Assembly (NCBI GenBank): GCA_041742965.1
Contig: JBGTNQ010000002.1
Span: forward strand, 1 to 50,135
Source of the DNA: Minisyncoccia bacterium
Lineage (GTDB): Bacteria > Patescibacteriota > Minisyncoccia > Phycocordibacterales > Zambryskibacteraceae
Reading direction: 5' to 3'
DNA: 50,135 nt
Shown: positions 4,796 through 36,003 of the stretch, in pieces
How the letters are laid out: every line of letters starts with the position of its first letter
Numbering within the stretch: position 1 is the stretch's first letter
Translations under genes and position numbers: made by a program
The notes under the pieces: model-generated
Database searches by the model: none
What the model was told of the DNA's origin: nothing
The model's input: only the letters and a program-made list of their open reading frames with translations

Positions 4796-5284
4796 ATGGC
4801 AATCACAAAAGAAAAAAAACAGGAAATTTTAAAGAAGGTTAAAGAAGCACTGGCTTCTTCTAAATCTATGGTGTTTGTAAATTTCCGTGGTTTGACAGTG
4901 GCAGGGATAAACGAGATTCGCAGAGCTCTTCGTGGTTCTGGGGTTTCTTACTTTGTTGCTAAAAAGAACCTTGTTAGAAAAGCGGTGGGAGAGGGAGATG
5001 TATCTGGGGAAATGCCAGATCTTCCTGGTGAGCTTGCACTAGTCTATGGAGACGACTTGATAGCTCCAGCTAGAGAGATTTATGGATTCCAAAAAAAATC
5101 TCCAGATAATCTAAAGATTCTCGGAGGAATTTTCGAAGGGAAATTCATGGATCAAGCAAGTATGATGGAAATCGCGACTATTCCAGTACTTCCAGTGCTT
5201 CATGGAAAGTTTGTAAACATCATCAATTCTCCAATTCAGAGATTTGTTATTGGATTGAGTGAGATTGCAAAGACGAAATCTTAA
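4796..5284 (+). CDS. rplJ: 50S ribosomal protein L10
   Basis: 162 aa. MAITKEKKQEILKKVKEAL...FVNFRGLTVAGINEIRRALR is typical of L10. It lies immediately upstream of L7/L12. Confidence 0.95.
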   Translation: MAITKEKKQEILKKVKEALASSKSMVFVNFRGLTVAGINEIRRALRGSGVSYFVAKKNLVRKAVGEGDVSGEMPDLPGELALVYGDDLIAPAREIYGFQKKSPDNLKILGGIFEGKFMDQASMMEIATIPVLPVLHGKFVNIINSPIQRFVIGLSEIAKTKS

Positions 5285-5311
5285 AAATTATTAATTAAAA
5301 ATTTAAAAATT

Positions 5312-5734
5312 ATGTCAGAAGAAACAAAAGTAGAAGGTGCTCAAAGTGAAGAGGTGAGTGTTGAAGTGCCGGCTAAGTTTAAGAAAATTGTAGAAGAAAT
5401 AGAGGGAATGTCAGTTTTGGAACTTAACGAACTTGTAAAGGTGTTTGAAAACAAGTTCGGTGTTTCAGCTTCTGCCGTCGCTGTTGCTGGCCCAGCTACT
5501 GCTGGCCCCGCTGAAGAAGTGAAGGATACTATGAATGTTGAACTAGCTGATGCTGGTGCAAACAAGATTGCAATCATTAAGGTTGTAAAAGAAGTTCTAG
5601 GGCTCGGTCTTAAAGAAGCGAAGGATTTGGTTGACGCCGCTCCTTCAATGCTAAAGACAGATATGAAGAAGGAAGAAGCAGAAGCTTTCAAAGCCAAGAT
5701 CGAAGAAGCCGGAGGAAAGGTTGCCCTTAAGTAA
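5312..5734 (+). CDS. rplL: 50S ribosomal protein L7/L12
   Basis: 140 aa with an Ala/Pro hinge and the C-terminal domain [19 protein letters not shown]...[10 protein letters not shown]. Confidence 0.95.
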
Positions 5735-7720: not shown

Positions 7721-8476
7721 TTAAATGCCCGTCATATGATCGTTTCTTTCTACCATTGGTAGAGGGGGTCTTCGATTATAGAGAGGGGGGAGAAATATAA
7801 AATGATTGTAATTTTGTATTTCTCAAAACATGTAGTTAAAACAAAACCTGTTTTGTGATTCATTTCATAAAACAGGATGAAGTAAGTAAAGTCACAACTT
7901 GTCCATGCGGGGCCAGTTGTGACTGTGCGGTTTTTAAATTTCCTAATAGGAAATTTAAGAGCGTATGGTGGATGCCTAGACTCTAAAAGGCGATGAAGGA
8001 CGTAGCATGGCTGCGATAAGCTTCGGGGAGGTGCCTAGCAACCTTTGATCCGGAGATTTCCGAATGGGGAAACCCATACCGTTTTTACGGTATGTGCAGG
8101 ACTAGACGCCTGCACGCGCACCCAGGGAAGTAAAACATTTCATTACCTGGAGGAAAAGAAACTAAAAAGAATTTCCCAAGTAGCGGCGAGCGAAAAGGAA
8201 GAAGCCCAAACCCAACACCATTTTCACTTGATCATTCTATGGTCTGGTGGAAGTGTTGTTGGGGGTTGTAAGGCAATAACTTCGCTTTTTTAAAGCGAAA
8301 GGAGTTACAAATCACTTCATTAATTGAATATGCTGGAAAGCATAACCCAAGAGGGTAATAGTCCCGTAAATGAAAATGAAGTGACTCTTTTGTTATTGTT
8401 CTTGAGTACCTCGAGACACGAATACCTCGGGGGAATCTGCCGGAACTAACCGGTAAGGCTAAATACTTTTAGAGAT

Positions 8477-8513
<37 letters not shown>

Positions 8514-9944
8514 CAGCCCGGTGAGGGCGGTGAAATAGACCTGAAACCATATGTTTACAAGGAGTCGGAGCGGACGCTTGCGTTCCGCCACGGCGTGCCT
8601 ATTGAAGAATGAGCCAACGAGTTTTAGCATGCTGCTCGGCTAAGCCCGAAAGGGTGGAGTCATAGGGAAACCGAGTGTGAATAGCGCGAAATTATGTAGC
8701 ATGCTAAAGACCCGAAGCCAAGTGAGCTTGTCATGAGCAGGGTGAACGCACCCGAAAGGGTGCGGGAGGCCCGAACCGGTGAGCCGTGCAATACTCTCGG
8801 ATGACTTGTGATAAGAAGTGAAAAGCTAATCGAACTTGGTAATAGCTGGTTCTCTCCGAAAGAGCTTTTGGGTTCGCGTCGTATGTTCCCGGGAGGGGTA
8901 GAGCACTGGAAGGTCTGGACAGGGCGAAAGCTCGCTAGACCTATCAAACTCCGAATACTCCCGGCTCAAAGTACGGCAGTTAGACTGCGGGGGCTAAGCT
9001 CCGTCGGTCAAAAGGGAAACAGCCCAGATCTCAATTTAAGGTCCCTAAATTTACACTAAGTGCGCTTAAGGTGGTGAAGTTTCTCAGACACTGAGGAGGT
9101 TGGCTTAGAAGCAGCCATCCTTTAAAGAAAGCGTAACAGCTCACTCAGTAAGAGATTTCGCGCCGCAGATAATCGGGGCTAAGTGTAGTACCGAAACTGA
9201 GGATTTGTTTTGTCTTCGGACAAGATAAGTGGTAGGAGAGTATTCGCATCTGCTGTGAAGGCAAAGGGGTGACCCATGCTGGAGCGTTGCGAAGAAAGAA
9301 TGTTGGCACAAGTAACCGCAATTAGAGTGAGAATCTCTAACGCCGAAAGAACAAGGTTTCCTTGGCGATGTAGATCAGCCAAGGGTTAGTCGGGCCTAAG
9401 GAGATGGCGAAAGCCGCATCCGATGGACACATGGTTAATATTCCATGACTTTTTGTTTGTGCGATGAGAGGACGGGGTTTAGTATGTCTTGCGCATTATT
9501 GGATTTGCGTTCGTGCCGTAAGGATGTTTCCCAGGAAAATCCGGGAAGCTCTCTTTAATGAGGAATCCAAGCGGAGCGAAGACTTTGGGGTTCGCCCTAG
9601 GGAATTTGACAAAGCAAGCTCTCAAGAAAAATCTCTAAGCATAACAAGCAAGAAACCGTACCGCAAACCGAAACAGGTGTTCAGCTCGAGTAGAGTAAGG
9701 CGAACGAGTGAGAAATCCCCAAGGAACTCGGCAAAAAAGCAGCCGTAACTTCGGAATAAGGCTTGCCCTGCCAGCAATGGTTGGGGCCGCAGCTAAAGTA
9801 TCTCTGGCAACTGTTTATCAAAAACACAGCTCCCTGCGAACTCGTAAGAGGATGTATAGGGGGTGACACCTGACCAATGCCAGAAGGTCAAATATCGGGG
9901 GTGAATAGGTCTTCGGATTTATTTGCTGATTGATATAAGCCCTG

Positions 9945-9979
<35 letters not shown>

Positions 9980-10182
9980 TGCGCGAACAATTTTATTGTT
10001 CGCGCAAGGACTGGGACTGTTATAGAAAAAGATAAACTAATTAAACACATAATCATTACATTTCCAGTTACCTATTCTGTCGAAATACAGAAATAGTCCA
10101 TCGTGATCAACGAGAGACCAACGTCACGGACCCAAACTTGCAAAAGTGGGTTAAGAGAGAGTCCTTCTGAGAGGAATAGAAG
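9980..10182 (+). other. 203-nt intervening sequence in 23S domain IV, between GGTCCTAAGGT and AGCGAAATTCC (by my alignment after E. coli U1931); class undetermined
   Basis: Both flanks of the conserved 23S sequence are contiguous in E. coli. The insert starts after a T and ends in G. It has several internal hairpins and no ORF. Confidence 0.65.
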
Positions 10183-10849
10183 AGCGAAATTCCTTGTCGG
10201 GTAAGTTCCGACGCGCACGAATGGTGTAATGACTGGAGAACTGTCTCGGGGATCAGCTCGGTGAAAATACAATACCGGTGAAGATGCCGGTTACCTGCAG
10301 TTAGACGAAAAGACCCCAGGAGCTTTACTGCAACTTGATATTGAGAATACGTTTTACATGCGTAGCATAGTGGTGAGACTTTGAAGCGGGCTTTCGGGTA
10401 CCGTGGAGTCGTTAGTGAAATAGCCATCTTGTGTAATGTATTTTCTAACCCCGTGGGCAAAAACCACGAGAGACAGTATCTGGCGGGCAGTTTTAGTGGG
10501 GCGCTATCCTCCTAAAAAGTAACGGAGGAGTTTATTAAGGTCAGCTAGGCGCGAATGGAAACCGTGCCGATAGTGTAATGGCATAAGCTGGCTTAACTGT
10601 GAGACGTACATGTCAAACAGATGCGAAAGCAGAACATAGTGAACCGACGGTCCGTGTTAGACGCGGCCGGAGATTATCGGATAAAAGCTACCCTGGGGAT
10701 AACAGGCTAGTTCCGCCTAAGCGTCCACAGCGACGGCGGAGTTCGGCACCTCGATGTCGGCTCAACTTATCCTGGGGGTGAAGAAGCTCCCAAGGGTATG
10801 GCTGTTCGCCATTTAAAAAGTTACGCGAGCTGGGTTCAGACCGTGAAGT

Positions 10850-10905
10850 AGTTGATAGTATTTAGTCGATAGTTGTTAGTAATTTGCTAACAACTAAAAA
10901 TTAAT
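10850..10905. repeat. Heptad-periodic array (AGTTGAT AGTATTT AGTCGAT AGTTGTT AGTAATT TGCTAAC AACTAAA AATTAAT) in the intron 5' extension
   Basis: 7-nt periodicity read directly. Confidence 0.6.
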
Positions 10906-11069
10906 CACTGCCCTCGACTATTCCACAGTCTGAATCCTCAGAGGAAAAAGAAAACTGTTATTGAAAATATTTTTGTTTATGAAATTGAAAGAAAAAGAAA
11001 CCAACCAACACGGCGGCTGTTCATAGTAATATGTACAGACAAACTGACTTATATCGGTAAATTCCAATC

Positions 11070-11111
11070 AGCTTAGGGCTGTTAGCTTGTAGCTTTCAGC
11101 TTAAAGACTGA
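11070..11111. repeat. AGCTNNN heptad array (AGCTTAG GGCTGTT AGCTTGT AGCTTTC AGCTTAA AGACTGA) inside the intron
   Basis: Read directly. It belongs to the family at 15894, 18141, 34304 and 34518. Confidence 0.7.
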
Positions 11112-11741
11112 GGAGGATACCGAGGGAAGGCGGCAGCTCGCGATTACGCGACTGCACTTGGATTTTCTAAAACAGATTACTGTTAAGAAAATCTCGGCGC
11201 CCGTAGAGACTAAATGTCAGTCTTCCTGAAAGGGAAGAAGTTATAGTCCATTCCTTGTAGTAATACAAGACAAAGAAGCGTGAGACAGGTTGGTCTCCTA
11301 TCTACTGCAGGCGTTGAATTTTGAGGAGATTTGACAATAGTACGAGAGGACCTTGTTGAACGAACCTCTGGTGTGAGAGCTGTTCCTGCCAAGGGCAATG
11401 CTCTGTAGCTAAGTTCGGAATGGATAACCTCTGAAAGCATCTAAGAGGGAAGCCAACTCCAAGATTAGAATTCGTTTGAGGCCCGTAGGAGATGACTACG
11501 TTGATAGGCTCTAGGTGTAAGCGTAGTAATGCGTTAAGCCGAGGAGTACTAATTCGCCGATTTCTATTAGGAAATTTGAAAATCGCGATTACTTCATCCT
11601 GTTTTATGGAATGAATCTCGTAGTGAATTTTGACATTGTGATTTCTGCACCCTTATTGTTGGGTGCTATGTCAAAATCTACTACCAGATGAATTTGACTA
11701 CATGTTGTTTTTGGTTCAAAGATTGCAAAGTGGTTTCATGC

Positions 11742-11814
11742 GCGCCGGTAGCTCAGTTGGAAGAGCAGGTGAATCTTAATCACTTGGTCGGAGGTTCGAG
11801 TCCTCCCCGGCGCA
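11742..11814 (+). tRNA. tRNA-Lys (anticodon CTT)
   Basis: Manual cloverleaf: gcgccgg/ccggcgc acceptor, gctc/gagc D stem, ggtga-atCTTaa-tcact, ggagg-ttcgagt-cctcc. CCA is not encoded. Confidence 0.9.
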
Positions 11815-11822
11815 TGCACCAT

Positions 11823-11896
11823 CGGGCTATAGCTCAGTCTGGTAGAGCGTCGTCTCTCTGAGACGAATGTCGCAGGTTCAAATCCTGCTAGCCCTG
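11823..11896 (+). tRNA. tRNA-like gene, nominal anticodon TCT (Arg), with non-canonical features
   Basis: Cloverleaf: cgggcta/tagccct acceptor with a C1xT72 mismatch, T8, gctc/gagc, tcgtc-tcTCTga-gacga, gcagg-ttcaaat-cctgc. Position 33 is C and position 37 is G. Confidence 0.6.
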
Positions 11897-12048
11897 TTTC
11901 CACTTTTCCGCCACTCAGACGGACGGCAACCCAGATGGTTGCCACCACTTTGCAGTCTTTGAGTTTATTAGCGACATAGAGCGAGAGGAGCGAACACTCT
12001 TTGACCGGGGTTTGCCCCGGGGTTAATACCGCTTTTATTCGATATAAA

Positions 12049-12413
12049 GTTCTGGTGATTTGTCGCAGAGGTCACACCCGTTCTCCCGCCATCGAGGCTT
12101 TGGCGGACTGCGATTTGCAGCTAATCACTTCGTTCTTGGGCAAATCGGGAGCATTCCGACCTGTCCCGTAGGAAATTTTTGAAGATTGAAAGTTTAGTTC
12201 TGGTGCTTCATCGCAGAGGTCACACCCGTTCTCATTCCGAACACGGAAGTTAAGCTCTGTTGAGGCGATGATACTCTTGTGGGGGAAAGTAGCTAGGCGC
12301 CAGAACTAAGAGTTCAATCAAATTTCTCAAAAATTTTCCTTCGGGGACACGGAAGTTAAGCTCTGTTGAGGCGATGATACTCTTGTGGGGGAAAGTAGCT
12401 AGTCGCCAGAACT
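12049..12413 (+). other. Outer, split 5S rRNA gene in three segments (12049-12085, 12153-12159, 12347-12413), interrupted in loop C by a 67-nt insert and a 187-nt insert that contains the intact 5S
   Basis: The concatenated segments are colinear with the intact copy and differ at 4 positions. All 4 differences are structure-preserving. The outer copy has its own flanking stem, 12036-12045/12417-12426. Confidence 0.6.
12197..12307 (+). rRNA. rrf: 5S rRNA (intact inner copy)
   Basis: gttctggtgc...ccgttctcattccgaacacggaagttaagc...gcgccagaac. Helices I, II and III can be drawn by hand. Confidence 0.9.
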
Positions 12414-15123: not shown

Positions 15124-16265
15124 TACAAGGCAGTAGTGTTTTTTACCATATTTTTTATATTAAATTCTTTCACCACTCGGTCATTTAGAGATTCACCCAG
15201 AGACTTTCTTAGTTCCGGTTTCACAATAAGTTCTTCAATCGTTCGGGCTAGTTTCTCTGTATTTTCTGGGCCAACTAGGAGCCCTGACTCACCGTTAGTG
15301 ATTGTTTCGGGTATACCACCAACCCAACTAGCTATAACCGGCAGAGAAGCAATTCCGGCTTCTAATGGGGCGTAGGGGAAAGCCTCCGTTCGTGATGTTA
15401 GGGTGAATATATCAAATGCTTTTAAATATTTTCTAGCATCGGCTTTAAATCCTACAAAAACCACCCGGCTATCTATTTCTAATTCATTGGCAAGGGATTT
15501 TAGATTTTCCTCTTCCTCCCCACCTCCCACAATTACAAGTGCGATGTTTGCATATTTTGGCATTAGGACAGCGAAGGCTTTCAACAAATAATCTAAACCC
15601 TTGTTCTTGTGAAGTTCTGATATTGTGCCAATCCACACTCTTTCATGAACTTGGGGGGCAAGGGCGTTTCTAGATTCGCTTTGCCCATTTAATTCAAATG
15701 ACTCTATTCCATTGTGTATGGTTTTTATCTTTTTCTTTATAAAAGGGAGCACCTTTATTTGACCCGCAGTCCTCTCTGACACCGCAATAGTGGAGTGAGA
15801 AAGGATTACGGTTATCCAGTGCAGTAGGTAGATTATTATTTTTTGAAAATTAGACCTCTCTTCATTAAAAGCCCATCCGTGACCAGTAAATATAGCTTTT
15901 AGCTTAGAGCTTTTAGCTGTTAGCTTTGTTAGGTTTAAAACACGGACAGCAAAAGCGCCTAGACCACCAATCTTTGAGCTATTGAGATGGACTATATTTG
16001 GACGCTCCTTTCTGAGGATATTTATAATCTCAAAAAAAGCCCAAATATCCTTTAATACGCTTATATTACGACTTAAAGATTTAATGTGTATGGTGCGGAT
16101 ACCCTCATCTTCGAGTTTGTTTTTTAGAGTTTCTCCTTCGCCGTGTGCTACTACTACATCAAATTTATCTTTGGGTATATTTGTCGCTAAATCAAATACA
16201 TACCTCTGGGCCCCTCCGAAGTTGCCCTTTGTAATTAAGTAGAGAATCTTTTTTTTGTCAGACAT
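15120..16265 (-). CDS. GT4-family glycosyltransferase
   Basis: 381 aa. The C-terminal Glycos_transf_1 signature is TSRTEAFPYAPLEAGIASLPVIASWVGGIPE. It carries an in-frame heptad-repeat insertion (LTAKSSKLKA). Confidence 0.8.
   Translation of the reverse strand: MSDKKKILYLITKGNFGGAQRYVFDLATNIPKDKFDVVVAHGEGETLKNKLEDEGIRTIHIKSLSRNISVLKDIWAFFEIINILRKERPNIVHLNSSKIGGLGAFAVRVLNLTKLTAKSSKLKAIFTGHGWAFNEERSNFQKIIIYLLHWITVILSHSTIAVSERTAGQIKVLPFIKKKIKTIHNGIESFELNGQSESRNALAPQVHERVWIGTISELHKNKGLDYLLKAFAVLMPKYANIALVIVGGGEEEENLKSLANELEIDSRVVFVGFKADARKYLKAFDIFTLTSRTEAFPYAPLEAGIASLPVIASWVGGIPETITNGESGLLVGPENTEKLARTIEELIVKPELRKSLGESLNDRVVKEFNIKNMVKNTTALY
15894..15928. repeat. AGCTNNN heptad array x5 (AGCTTTT AGCTTAG AGCTTTT AGCTGTT AGCTTTG) inside the GT4 CDS
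   Basis: Read directly. Its reverse complement matches 34517-34550 at 32 of 34 nt by hand alignment. Confidence 0.8.
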
Positions 16266-18140: not shown

Positions 18141-18172
18141 AGCTTATAAGTTGTTAGCTATCAGCTTATAGG
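18141..18172. repeat. AGCTNNN-type heptad array (AGCTTATA AGTTGTT AGCTATC AGCTTAT AGG) starting 4 nt after the stop codon
   Basis: Read directly. One unit is 8 nt long. Confidence 0.6.
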
Positions 18173-21711: not shown

Positions 21712-23270
<1,559 letters not shown>

Positions 23271-23478
23271 GTGAAAAACCGTCCCGAGATTTTTTCGAGG
23301 GGCTTAGTGTGTCGATATTGTGTGCCTCAATTGAGCACATGATGGATTTGATAGTAATCCTAAAATCTATCTGACATCTGGAAAGACAGATGCAGTTCCA
23401 CTCGCGCTTTGCTTAAGCAATTTTGTAAAGTATTGAGGTGGGGTGAAGGGAACGGGACAAAATAAAGAATAGTAGAAG

Positions 23479-34303: not shown

Positions 34304-34345
34304 AGTTTTTAGTTTTTAGTTTTTAGTTGATAGTTTTAAGTTATG
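34304..34345. repeat. AGTTNNN heptad array x6 (AGTTTTT x3, AGTTGAT, AGTTTTA, AGTTATG) filling the intergenic gap and running into the next ATG
   Basis: Read directly. It looks like a C-to-T variant of the AGCTNNN family. Confidence 0.75.
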
Positions 34346-35401
34346 AAATTATTAATCATTACACAGACAGTAGATAAAAATAATCCAGTATTGGGGTTTT
34401 TTCATAGATGGATTGAGGAGTTCTCAAAAAATTTTGAAAAGATAACGGTGGTCTGTCTTGAAAAGGGGATCTATGATTTGCCTGAAAATGTAGAAGTCTA
34501 CTCTCTCGGTAAAGAAAAGCTGACAGCTAAAAGCTATAAGCTAAAAGCTTTTATAAAAATTAAATACCTATTTAATTTTTATAGACTTATATTCAAGTTT
34601 CGCAAAGAATACGATTCCGTTTTCGTGCACATGAATCAGGAGTATGTGCTTTTGGGTGGAGATATTTGGCGAGTTATGGGCAAAAAAATATATCTCTGGC
34701 GTAACCATGCAAAGGGAAATATCCTCACTCGTATTGCTGTTCTTCTGTCCCACAAAGTATTTTGTACTTCACCACAGTCATACACGGCGAAGTTTAAAAA
34801 GACTCAGTTAATGTCGGCTGGAATTGATACAGATTTCTTTAGACCAGACCCCTCTGCTCCTAAGAAAAAAAATTCAATTTTATTCTTAGGACGAATATCT
34901 CCCGTGAAGAATGTCCACGTTTTTGTAGAGTCCCTCAACAGTCTTAAAAAAGCGGGAGTTGATTTCTTTGCTACTATTGCTGGTGGTGCAACGCTAAAAG
35001 ATGTTGGTTATGAAAAGAGGATTAGAGATATGGTGCTCAGGTATGGGTTGAGTGAAAATGTTCAGTTTACTGGACCAGTAACTCAAGGGAGGGCTTTACA
35101 GCTCTATAGAGAAAATGAGCTTTATGTTAATCTTACGCCAGATGGAAGTTTTGATAAGACGATACTGGAGGCGATGTCATCAGGTGTTTCTGTGCTTATC
35201 TCAAATTCGGCCTTTCGCGAACATACCTCCGATGTTTGTTTTATGGAGAGTTACAGCCCTGAAAATATTGCCAATAATATAAAGATACTTTTGTCTCTTG
35301 AGGATAGTGAAATTGAAAGCATAAGAAAGAGATTAAGAGAATATGTTGAAAAAAACCACAGCCTAGACGTTCTTTTTGAAAGATTTTTTAAGATTTTTTA
35401 A
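34343..35401 (+). CDS. GT1/GT4-like glycosyltransferase
   Basis: 352 aa with NLTPDGSFDKTILEAMSSGVSVLISN. It carries the in-frame insertion LTAKSYKLKA. Confidence 0.75.
   Translation: MKLLIITQTVDKNNPVLGFFHRWIEEFSKNFEKITVVCLEKGIYDLPENVEVYSLGKEKLTAKSYKLKAFIKIKYLFNFYRLIFKFRKEYDSVFVHMNQEYVLLGGDIWRVMGKKIYLWRNHAKGNILTRIAVLLSHKVFCTSPQSYTAKFKKTQLMSAGIDTDFFRPDPSAPKKKNSILFLGRISPVKNVHVFVESLNSLKKAGVDFFATIAGGATLKDVGYEKRIRDMVLRYGLSENVQFTGPVTQGRALQLYRENELYVNLTPDGSFDKTILEAMSSGVSVLISNSAFREHTSDVCFMESYSPENIANNIKILLSLEDSEIESIRKRLREYVEKNHSLDVLFERFFKIF
34518..34552. repeat. AGCTNNN heptad array x5 (AGCTGAC AGCTAAA AGCTATA AGCTAAA AGCTTTT) inside the CDS
   Basis: Exact 7-nt spacing of five AGCT sites, read directly. 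Confidence 0.8.
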
Positions 35402-35421
35402 TTTTGTTAAGTATTTATTTT

Positions 35422-36003
35422 ATGAAATTTATAGATAAAAAAATAGAAGAAATTAGTAAAGGAAAATATATACTTGATGTCGGTGGTGGAGATAGATTTC
35501 AAAAATGGCTCACTCCCTACAAACATCTTTTTTCAGATTCTAATTACAAAACTTTTGACTATGATGAAAGTACTGGGGCGGACATAGTCGGGGATATACA
35601 TTCTATGCCCATAGAGAATGATTCTGTGGATGGTGTTATATGTAGTTCAGTTCTTGAACATGTTCAAAATCCAATACTAGCTCTATCTGAAATGAAACGA
35701 ATTTTAAAACCCGGAGGCAAGATATTTATATATGTTCCATCAATATACCCTTACCACGCAAGAAAAGGTCATTATCCAGACTACTGGCGTTTTTTTGATG
35801 ATACTTTGGAGATGCTATTTAAAGATTGGTCTAGTTTCGAAATACATAAAGTCGGTGGTTATTTCAAAGCTCTGTTTTTCTTTATTCCCATGCAACACAA
35901 AATACGTTTTATACTAGACCCAATCTCGGCATTTTTGGACAGATTATTTAAGACCAGCAAAAGAACAACAACTTCTGGGTACTATGTCTATGCGATTAAG
36001 TAA
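35422..36003 (+). CDS. Class I SAM-dependent methyltransferase (type 11)
   Basis: ILDVGGGD motif I and VICSSVLEHV...LKPGGKIFIYVP. I prefer the ATG at 35422 over the TTG at 35404. Confidence 0.75.
   Translation: MKFIDKKIEEISKGKYILDVGGGDRFQKWLTPYKHLFSDSNYKTFDYDESTGADIVGDIHSMPIENDSVDGVICSSVLEHVQNPILALSEMKRILKPGGKIFIYVPSIYPYHARKGHYPDYWRFFDDTLEMLFKDWSSFEIHKVGGYFKALFFFIPMQHKIRFILDPISAFLDRLFKTSKRTTTSGYYVYAIK

Follow-up and report, generated by a model that had tools for sequence, protein, structure and literature searches.

What kind of sequence are the two short AGCT arrays that lie inside two glycosyltransferase genes of a Minisyncoccia bacterium, and how does such a repeat persist within protein-coding DNA? 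The stretch analysed, referred to here as the window, comprises 50,135 nt of contig JBGTNQ010000002.1. It has a GC content of 39%, the best relatives of its proteins were found in metagenome-assembled genomes (MAGs) of Paceibacteria and Zambryskibacteria, and it belongs to a genome of the candidate phyla radiation (CPR)/Patescibacteria type. The two genes are named GT-A (minus strand) and GT-B (plus strand). The array segments are probably translated, in-frame heptanucleotide microsatellites of the AGCTAAA type, a kind of repeat that occupies permissive sites and grows or shrinks in steps of three units.

The two arrays and their host genes

The first-pass annotation reported five AGCT sites at exact 7-nt spacing in each gene, and this was upheld when the coordinates were re-read. 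On the plus strand, AGCT is present at 15894, 15901, 15908, 15915 and 15922 in GT-A, and at 34518, 34525, 34532, 34539 and 34546 in GT-B. A four-unit AGCT pattern was not matched in any of 100 dinucleotide-preserving shuffles, which rules out a chance origin of the arrays. Runs of three or more AGCT sites in the window had a period of 7 or its multiple 14 only, and Tandem Repeats Finder called both arrays with period 7 and 5.0 units. In coding orientation, the array segments of GT-A (aaagctaacagctaaaagctctaagctaaaagct) and GT-B (aaagctgacagctaaaagctataagctaaaagct) are identical at 32 of 34 nt. They encode KLTAKSSKLKA and KLTAKSYKLKA, respectively, so that both the identity and the peptides LTAKSSKLKA and LTAKSYKLKA given earlier were reproduced by re-reading and translation. 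The same holds for the claim that a single frame is tolerated, as all other frames and the opposite strand of both arrays contain TAA or TAG.

The two host enzymes had been described as unrelated, which is not the case: Pfam assigns both to the GT4 family of glycosyltransferases with a GT-B fold. The accompanying statement, that the arrays lie at different positions in surroundings that cannot be aligned, was correct, since BLASTP of GT-A against GT-B aligned the array peptide only. Residues 71-99 of GT-A and 73-102 of GT-B form homologous helices. The array positions are not homologous, that of GT-B being before the shared helix and that of GT-A one helix-strand unit after it.

Insertion sites in orthologs and structural models

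In about two thirds of 75 GT-B orthologs, the segment that runs from SLGK to FVHMNQ has a length of 33 aa, and the others carry 2 to 24 additional aa at the same site. The base state of the GT-A orthologs is 24 aa, with a minority extended by 5 to 28 aa. The inserts in GT-B orthologs are often 7-nt periodic with other heptads (AAGTCAA, ATTTTCA, AGTAGCT, ATCTAAA, GGTATNN and GAGTTNG), and those in GT-A orthologs include AGCTAAA-type, GCTACAA, CCCTAAA and CATAATA arrays. An AGCTAAA-type array at the same site was found in orthologs that are 48-60% identical (L121, L133 and L137 for GT-B, L217 for GT-A), and the GT-A-site array was also recovered in the same-family genes L342, L382, L403 and L470 by pattern and metagenome scans. 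The suggestion of a lineage-specific insertion was thus half right: the segment is extra, non-conserved sequence that most orthologs lack, but it is not confined to one lineage. A conserved protein motif was likewise ruled out, as most orthologs are without the segment and its DNA is 7-nt periodic.

When the window GT-B was compared with its L121 ortholog, the array was the best-conserved nucleotide stretch (94-96%, against 67% for the whole gene). In the L121 genome the GT-B array is present and the GT-A homolog (L201) is without one.

AlphaFold2 models of both proteins were confident (mean pLDDT 94). In the GT-B model, array residues 59-69 lengthen the N-terminal end of helix 62-85, and the block with the lowest pLDDT (70) is 61-70. 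In the GT-A model, array residues 114-124 are located in coil 113-122, between helix 97-112 and strand 123-128, and the lowest pLDDT (72) was obtained for the 10-residue block 111-120. The models place both arrays at predicted surface, dispensable positions, and the array would not be needed for catalysis. Across the GT4 fold, arrays were observed at four or five recurrent sites, each of which is a helix at the surface or a linker.

The same permissive glycosyltransferase sites also hold other kinds of sequence. GC-rich, hairpin-like in-frame inserts (for example cattccggccttgagccggaatc and cccgcccctgcccgtccggcaggcgggggcgaggcggg) were seen at L158:4160-4330, L162:4160-4290 and L227:4292-4420, which suggests repetitive extragenic palindromic (REP)-like elements translated in frame. 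One such hot spot (L182:4160-4290) contains a 22-nt direct repeat in frame (two copies of GACGCGGACTTGCGCGGA), and another (L164:4450-4525) an 8-nt unit in frame (AAAGATTT/G, four copies, about 32 nt). At the GT-A site of a Paceibacter MAG (L246:4274-4370), CCCTAAA units encode YPKPHTLNPK. This unit is complementary to TTTAGGG, the telomere repeat of plants, a likeness that is presumably coincidental.

Abundance of period-7 arrays in CPR DNA and other phyla

Period-7 arrays are the dominant tandem repeat of CPR/Paceibacteria DNA. The 703 kb of Paceibacteria DNA that surround GT-B orthologs contained 61 period-7 arrays of at least 3.5 units, against about 11 for all other periods. The corresponding figures for 1.34 Mb of related CPR DNA were 75 period-7 arrays and no more than 13 for any other period. 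Unit numbers ranged from 3.6 to 5.6, with only one of the 61 arrays above 5.0, and perfect runs of 29-34 nt occurred at period 7 only, with none longer. Open reading frames (ORFs) of 200-660 aa that remain open hold 58 of these 61 arrays. On the coding strand, the heptads make up a single loose family that resembles A4NNT, and AAAAGCT is its commonest type. A single genome-specific heptad type, as expected for one trans-acting factor, was ruled out, since single loci and even single genes contain up to five types.

The distribution among genes is uneven. In glycan-cluster loci, 54 of the 75 arrays lie in GT4 genes, which corresponds to a 16-fold enrichment: the GT4 genes amount to 374 kb, and the 866 kb of other genes contain 8 arrays (Fisher p = 1.6e-20).

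Heptads that contain a stop codon are used by 39 of 62 in-ORF arrays. In these arrays every third unit, the one that would place the stop in frame, is altered, as in the L157 array ATTGAAA ATTGAAA ATTCTAA ATTGAAA (KLKIENSKLKI) and in the window, where AGCTAAA is followed by a unit changed to AGCTATA or AGCTCTA. Independent AGCTAAA arrays may therefore resemble each other largely because the in-frame-stop unit must change (H H X H H). The systematic repair of the in-frame stop also indicates that the arrays must be translated and not skipped.

In other phyla, 29 of 120 AGCTNNN arrays of five units lie in a stop-free frame of at least 150 codons. The genomes that contain them show a strong period-7 excess, with 109 further arrays and a tail reaching 29 copies. 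This excess agrees with the published over-representation of heptameric simple sequence repeats (SSRs) (PMC4692102, PMC4679880). Perfect (AGCTAAA)n gave 114 pattern matches among the matches listed, several per locus in the longer arrays. All of these were non-coding, some exceeded 10 units, and they came from many phyla, including Acidobacteriota, Cyanobacteria, Bacteroidota and Gammaproteobacteria (L283-L397; L001, L020, L023). The AGCTAAA heptamer is thus repeated across distant phyla, as has been reported for TAACTGA.

A recurrent 30-nt form of the array

The exact 25-nt core AGCTAAAAGCTAYAAGCTAAAAGCT was found in at least 120 metagenome contigs, with 109 distinct flank contexts among the matches listed, and 94 of the 124 core occurrences among those matches lie in ORFs of at least 100 aa. 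The host ORFs represent at least 41 protein families. Those assigned by Pfam include Mur ligase, TsaD, TrmD, TIM, PGK, UvrC and Tgt, PheS, PheT, MnmA, RNase HII and FemAB, as well as class-V and DegT aminotransferases, AP endonuclease, PMT-type transferase and GT4 enzymes. Prepilin leader peptides are also among the host contexts, identified not by Pfam but by a GFTLIE-type motif beside the module.

In the flank profile, C-T-A-A-A is conserved at positions -5 to -1, and the composition is at background from -6 upstream and from +2 downstream. Such sharp edges imply that the recurrent form is a 30-nt block with its edges on codon boundaries. Its consensus is CTA AAA GCT AAA AGC TAY AAG CTA AAA GCT, which encodes LKAKSYKLKA, and it begins and ends with the 9-mer CTAAAAGCT. 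A relaxed search recovered 173 stop-free module copies in 144 loci, in which the codon at the stop position was TAT in 115 and TAC in 41 (jointly 156 of 173). The contigs that share the same exact 25-30 nt span 30-67% GC. Both window arrays are diverged copies of this form, and both belong to a rarer LTA subtype that accounts for 17 of the 173 copies (about 10%).

Arrays were also present in housekeeping genes of other CPR-type contigs, namely topA, dprA, uvrA, uvrC (three), secA, murB, PPDK and trmD (two). The topA gene at L298:3005-5113 (minus strand) contains five in-frame heptad arrays (TTGCCGG, CTGGCTG, TTGATAC, AGCTTTT and GAATTGG), four of which are 100% perfect, and the dprA gene beside it has an array of 7.9 units. 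This record is labelled Pseudomonadales and has 41% GC.

Mode of change of the arrays

Arrays in the interdomain linker of GT4 enzymes are tandem copies of adjacent native codons: GAAAGATTC (GAA AGA TTC) gave four copies of AAGATTC, and AAA TTT TC gave four copies of AATTTTC. In one ortholog the unit of the linker array is 8 nt long. Linker arrays frequently take the place of the native linker without making it longer.

The TsaD proteins of CPR bacteria are 336-406 aa long, and most orthologs hold peptides encoded by heptads at no fewer than four sites; the heptad type varies by lineage, and the would-be stop is usually Tyr or Phe. A close pair of TsaD genes, P0241 and P0242 (81% identical), was informative. 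At one site the first reads GAA CTA AAA GCT followed directly by AAT, and the second GAA CTAAAAGCT AAAAGCT ATAAGCT AAAACCT AAA. The difference is exactly 21 nt, that is three units or seven residues, on the 9-nt seed CTAAAAGCT. At a second site the same G-to-A change is present in three of four units, and at two further sites both genes carry arrays of differing heptad types. Another TsaD variant has 14 additional aa (six units, 42 nt), and in L230 every unit is the stop-free AGCTACA. The P0241/P0242 pair is decisive for the mode of change. The arrays behave as microsatellites do: whole units are gained or lost and units become homogenised, and the reading frame filters these changes to multiples of three units. 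The turnover of whole units was shown for arrays in general, the TsaD orthologs being one example, and not at the two window loci.

Proposed origin and points that weigh against it

Under the preferred reading, replication slippage or template switching, acting on short seeds such as CTAAAAGCT (codons for Leu-Lys-Ala), would create the arrays and drive their turnover. Within genes, only net changes that preserve the frame (three units) would survive. Persistence would be limited to arrays of about 4-5 units, which add a tolerable Lys/Leu/Ala-rich segment of 10-12 residues, and a unit with an in-frame TAA would have to be altered, usually to TAT or TAC. Slippage by one unit would move the frame into TAA codons of the array itself, which makes the array a latent on/off switch in the glycosyltransferases, although no switching was observed.

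Several observations weigh against this scheme. The addition of three stop-bearing units always creates an in-frame TAA, so that stepwise slippage passes through a null allele, even in essential genes; stop-bearing heptads are nonetheless used in well over half of the in-ORF arrays, as given above. Two routes around this paradox are possible. A copy in which the stop has been repaired before may serve as template for the new units, a route that comes close to the copy-and-paste alternative discussed below, or stop-free units may arise first and then undergo AT-biased concerted change, with L230 and a subtype combining LQA with TAC as intermediates. The net gain in both window genes is +9 aa and not +7, and at several sites arrays overwrite the host segment without lengthening it. 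A simple rule of +7 aa for every array was for these reasons rejected. The 16-fold GT4 enrichment in glycan clusters is not predicted by neutral slippage, and the occurrence of the same 25-30 nt in contigs of such different GC content and in so many families could be fitted equally well by copying from a common source. The 21-nt difference between P0241 and P0242 has no established polarity and may be a gain or a loss. Nor does the slippage model explain a unit length of 7 nt.

Possible copying of the module between sites

The alternative that survives best is a non-autonomous copy-and-paste process, which we consider possible but rather doubtful. In this case a defined module of 21-30 nt would spread from existing copies to further sites. 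The copying might occur, for instance, by template switching at ectopic positions or by gene conversion, with CTAAAAGCT as the priming sequence, and forward phase-0 insertions alone would survive. It is favoured by the many exact core copies in different flank contexts with edges on codon boundaries, by the breadth of host families, and by AT-rich modules inside GC-rich contigs. The repaired stop (TAY) moves together with the module, the subtypes LKA, LQA with TAC, and LTA reappear in different genes, and 22 loci have two or more module copies within 8-14 kb. Both window copies being of the rarer LTA subtype also fits. Concordance of subtypes within a genome was, however, suggestive in the window only and did not hold generally, with inconsistent subtypes in one genome for example in L172/L297. 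The two window copies differ from each other at 4 of 35 nt and from the L217 copy at 5 of 35 (counted by eye), and are thus no closer. The linker arrays built from local sequence and the single topA gene with five heptad types also argue against copying of one module.

The first-pass annotation had proposed a miniature insertion element. A dispersed in-frame repeat family at permissive sites was indeed found, but its transposition is not supported: neither inverted repeats nor a hairpin were found, reading of the flanks showed no systematic duplication of the target, the flank composition is at background beyond -5 and +1, and arrays at other sites copy local sequence. Features of miniature inverted-repeat transposable elements or insertion sequences were not apparent in these flanks. 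Carriage by phage was ruled out, as the core had no match among 2.9 million viral contigs. The accompanying idea that the arrays act through hairpins or slipped structures did not hold either, since they fold no better than shuffled sequence (z = -1.6 and 0.0). No association with a transposase was observed, the one exception being a 243-aa ORF of a single related locus (L282:2306-3037). It has a weak match to Y1_Tnp (IS200/IS605 or REP-associated tyrosine transposase type) and lies among array-bearing GT4 genes; in the same locus a PemK toxin gene is found just upstream of the GT-B ortholog.

A broader version of the copying idea is put forward tentatively. In CPR bacteria, heptad arrays might be written into, or over, about 21-33 nt of coding DNA by an active process that follows a sequence template, and LKAKSYKLKA might be a propagating in-frame micro-element in dozens of essential proteins across the radiation. 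The agent would possibly be a specialised polymerase, a template-switching activity or an RNA-templated enzyme, and the peptide or the nucleic-acid tract would possibly have a shared function.

Unlikely roles: phase variation, peptide function and nucleic-acid binding

The arrays might be contingency loci, selected hypermutable tracts in which surface-glycan glycosyltransferases are switched by slippage of one 7-nt unit. The pglE gene of Neisseria is an example of phase variation of this kind in a glycosyltransferase. Heptanucleotide and other SSRs in glycosyltransferase genes are an established phase-variation device (PMC2651432). The unit is not a multiple of three, and the other frames contain stops. 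All 81 GT-B orthologs were intact, with no OFF allele, and no arrays were located at frameshift junctions. The tracts are also short and imperfect, the array was the best-conserved stretch relative to L121, and GT-A is a syntenic gene beside ftsW that is not obviously variable. The same arrays occur in topA, secA, uvrA/C, tsaD, trmD, tpiA, pgk, pheS/T and murC-like genes, where switching would be lethal, and this rules out phase variation as a general role. A flank-anchored search of JGI metagenomes for length alleles of the window GT-B array returned no matches, a result that says nothing about population polymorphism. We regard a contingency role as unlikely, although the unexplained GT4 enrichment keeps it alive for the glycosyltransferases as an outside chance.

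Still less probable is selection for the peptide itself, as an amphipathic segment rich in Lys and Leu that would serve, for example, in membrane association of GT-B enzymes, with the DNA periodicity being incidental. The AlphaFold2 model, in which the segment lengthens a basic amphipathic helix of GT-B, would be consistent with this, as would the predominance of Lys/Leu/Ala-rich peptides among the heptad types and the many copies in prepilin leader peptides and surface helices. Selection on the peptide cannot, however, yield perfect 7-nt periodicity without synonymous codon use. Other heptad types encode unrelated peptides (e.g. NFQFSIF and KSEIRNP), most orthologs function without the segment, and soluble enzymes are among the host proteins.

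An iterated nucleic-acid site, either a binding array or a methylation/restriction target of a dedicated factor comparable to the heptad iterons of ribbon-helix-helix proteins, is highly improbable: the palindromic AGCT core at fixed spacing, the conservation of the array between the window and L121, and the recurrence of heptamers across phyla (perfect AGCTAAA, with its parallel in TAACTGA; PMC4679880) would fit such a site, but in the window AGCT is about as frequent as expected (observed/expected 0.95), dozens of heptad types are without AGCT, often in the same gene, and the arrays lie mostly inside ORFs. The AGCT frequency gives no hint of a restriction-modification system, and the fact that AGCT is only one of many heptad types argues against the AGCT-specific binding or methylation factor suggested earlier. 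The palindromes that are depleted in the window are ACGT, TCGA and GATC. No DNA methyltransferase or endonuclease was detected among the ten window ORFs scanned; the single ORF with a methyltransferase domain, at 35404-36003, matched general S-adenosylmethionine-dependent families.

Other repeats in the window and the 23S rRNA gene

The array features of the window are listed in Table 1. Related arrays had been proposed after stop codons and in the 23S rRNA gene. Of these, the array upstream of GT-B is clear and the arrays of the 23S insertion are periodic; the one after the sugar transferase gene is only weakly periodic and was not called by Tandem Repeats Finder. The array upstream of GT-B occupies the entire spacer, from the stop codon of the preceding GT4 gene (34302) to the GT-B start codon (34343).

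Table 1. Heptad arrays, 30-nt modules and host genes in the window
Feature	Position	Strand	Description
Heptad array TTAAAAA, 4.4 units, intergenic	5281..5312		Fills spacer of two co-directional ORFs
TAGTNNN array, 5 units	10849..10883	+	5' edge of 23S rRNA gene insertion
AGCTTNN array, 5 units, one unit GGCT	11070..11104	+	5' end of sub-threshold group I intron match
GT-A, GT4 glycosyltransferase, 381 aa	15120..16265	-	Neighbours FtsW/RodA and Bac_transf sugar transferase
Heptad array in GT-A	15894..15925	-	Coding strand AGCTAAC AGCTAAA AGCTCTA AGCTAAA AGCT
30-nt module CTAACAGCTAAAAGCTCTAAGCTAAAAGCT in GT-A	15894-15923	-	LTAKSSKLKA; 28/30 identical to family consensus
Degenerate AGCT/AAGT array with indels	18141..18172		Directly after sugar transferase stop; weak, no Tandem Repeats Finder call
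Heptad array AGTTTTT, 5.6 units, intergenic	34304..34342		Clear period 7; TAG every 7 nt
GT-B, GT4 glycosyltransferase, 352 aa	34343..35401	+	In a run of GT4 genes
Heptad array in GT-B	34515..34549	+	AGCTGAC AGCTAAA AGCTATA AGCTAAA AGCT
30-nt module CTGACAGCTAAAAGCTATAAGCTAAAAGCT in GT-B	34520-34549	+	LTAKSYKLKA; 28/30 identical to consensus

The 23S rRNA gene (7942-11573) has 3632 nt where the model has 2925. After GAGCTGGGTTCAGACCGT, the classic I-CreI/I-CeuI intron site region, comes an insertion of about 430 nt (10845-11275). It holds two heptad arrays, and the last units of the first of these pair as one arm in a hairpin of 10 bp (z = -4.9). A group I intron match within the insertion (11073-11270, 34.8 bits, E = 4.6e-7) is sub-threshold. 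About 270 nt of extra sequence lie elsewhere in the gene, beyond the 430-nt insertion. The 16S gene is not linked to the other rRNA genes, and the gene order is unusual: 16S (21713-23272) is preceded, at a distance of about 9.4 kb on the same strand, by 23S, two tRNAs and 5S (7942-12305), and VWA-domain, ftsW, GT-A, sugar-transferase and secD/secF genes lie between 5S and 16S.

A repeat at 509-577, within a 630-aa ORF (128-2020), has 18-nt and 6-nt periods (CTGGAACAGGTACTGGCA, 3.6 copies; GGAACT, 10.8 copies). It is a triplet-compatible coding repeat and thus of a different kind from the heptad arrays. In a related locus (L280:2189-2274), two adjacent intergenic heptad arrays with roughly complementary units (CCAAACA and TTGGTTA) lie between two co-directional genes and could pair as a long imperfect hairpin.

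Relation to known repeats

Both heptameric repeats and in-frame dispersed repeats are already known in bacteria. Rickettsia palindromic elements (RPEs) are palindromic sequences of 100-150 bp, inserted in frame in many unrelated genes including housekeeping genes, where they add a surface peptide while function is kept. The first-pass comparison with RPEs was apt at the level of a dispersed in-frame repeat at permissive sites of many unrelated genes, and the added surface peptide and lineage-specific proliferation are further points in common. The arrays differ from RPEs in their length (28-35 nt), in folding no better than shuffled sequence, in being 7-nt periodic and of many sequence types, and in gaining or losing whole, locally templated units.

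Translational bypass inserts, such as those of T4 gene 60 and the byp elements of Magnusiomyces mitochondria, are 27-55 nt long, are flanked by matching codons and contain an in-frame stop, and the ribosome skips them. The arrays are likewise short, within an ORF and with matching ends, the module starting and ending with CTAAAAGCT, but here the in-frame stop is removed; 58 of 61 arrays remain open, and a Tyr codon occupies the stop position in most stop-free module copies. With the SSR contingency loci of Haemophilus lipooligosaccharide genes and the heptanucleotide tracts of Neisseria pgl genes, the arrays share a non-triplet repeat in a glycosyltransferase ORF that a one-unit slip would truncate; they differ in the absence of OFF alleles among the GT-B orthologs, in their short, imperfect tracts and in their presence in essential genes.

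The known heptamer families include the cyanobacterial short tandemly repeated repetitive (STRR) sequences, TAACTGA of Beggiatoaceae, Cyanobacteria and Bacteroidetes, and GGGAATC of Xanthomonas (PMC4679880, PMC4692102). A 2007 survey, as attributed by PMC4692102 (its ref 33), found heptameric SSRs over-represented in bacteria, and an origin by polymerase slippage has been proposed (PMC4692102). The present arrays resemble these families in having a 7-nt unit, typically in 2-6 copies, with the same heptamers at many loci and across phyla, and stops in all three frames of one orientation; the proposed slippage origin is a further likeness (PMC4679880, PMC4692102). Tandem units, a period-7 excess and changes in unit number with concerted change, all characteristic of heptanucleotide tandem repeats, were observed, but the intergenic location was not. 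The published families are overwhelmingly intergenic, with a few in-ORF cases at protein termini, whereas the present arrays lie almost entirely in ORFs, essential ones included, are capped near five units, have the in-frame stop repaired and change in three-unit steps. A literature search for heptad arrays or in-frame repeat elements in CPR bacteria found none described, intergenic heptamer repeats being the only related work. Translated arrays of about 30 nt across CPR proteins, and the LKAKSYKLKA block, are thus undescribed in the literature searched.

Implications for CPR bacteria

If the preferred reading is true, microsatellites with a 7-nt unit are tolerated and continually renewed in essential genes throughout a bacterial radiation, with tracts that add about 10 residues to TsaD, TIM, PGK, TopA and aminoacyl-tRNA synthetases. 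This would bear on the source of many unexplained insertions in CPR proteins, on slippage and repair where the DNA-repair equipment is minimal, and on the reason for the excess of heptameric repeats in bacteria, a question of long standing. In practice, the arrays mark places in CPR genomes where artefacts of assembly, annotation and alignment can be foreseen. They are also natural markers for permissive insertion sites of conserved enzymes, and those in the glycosyltransferases are candidate on/off switches.

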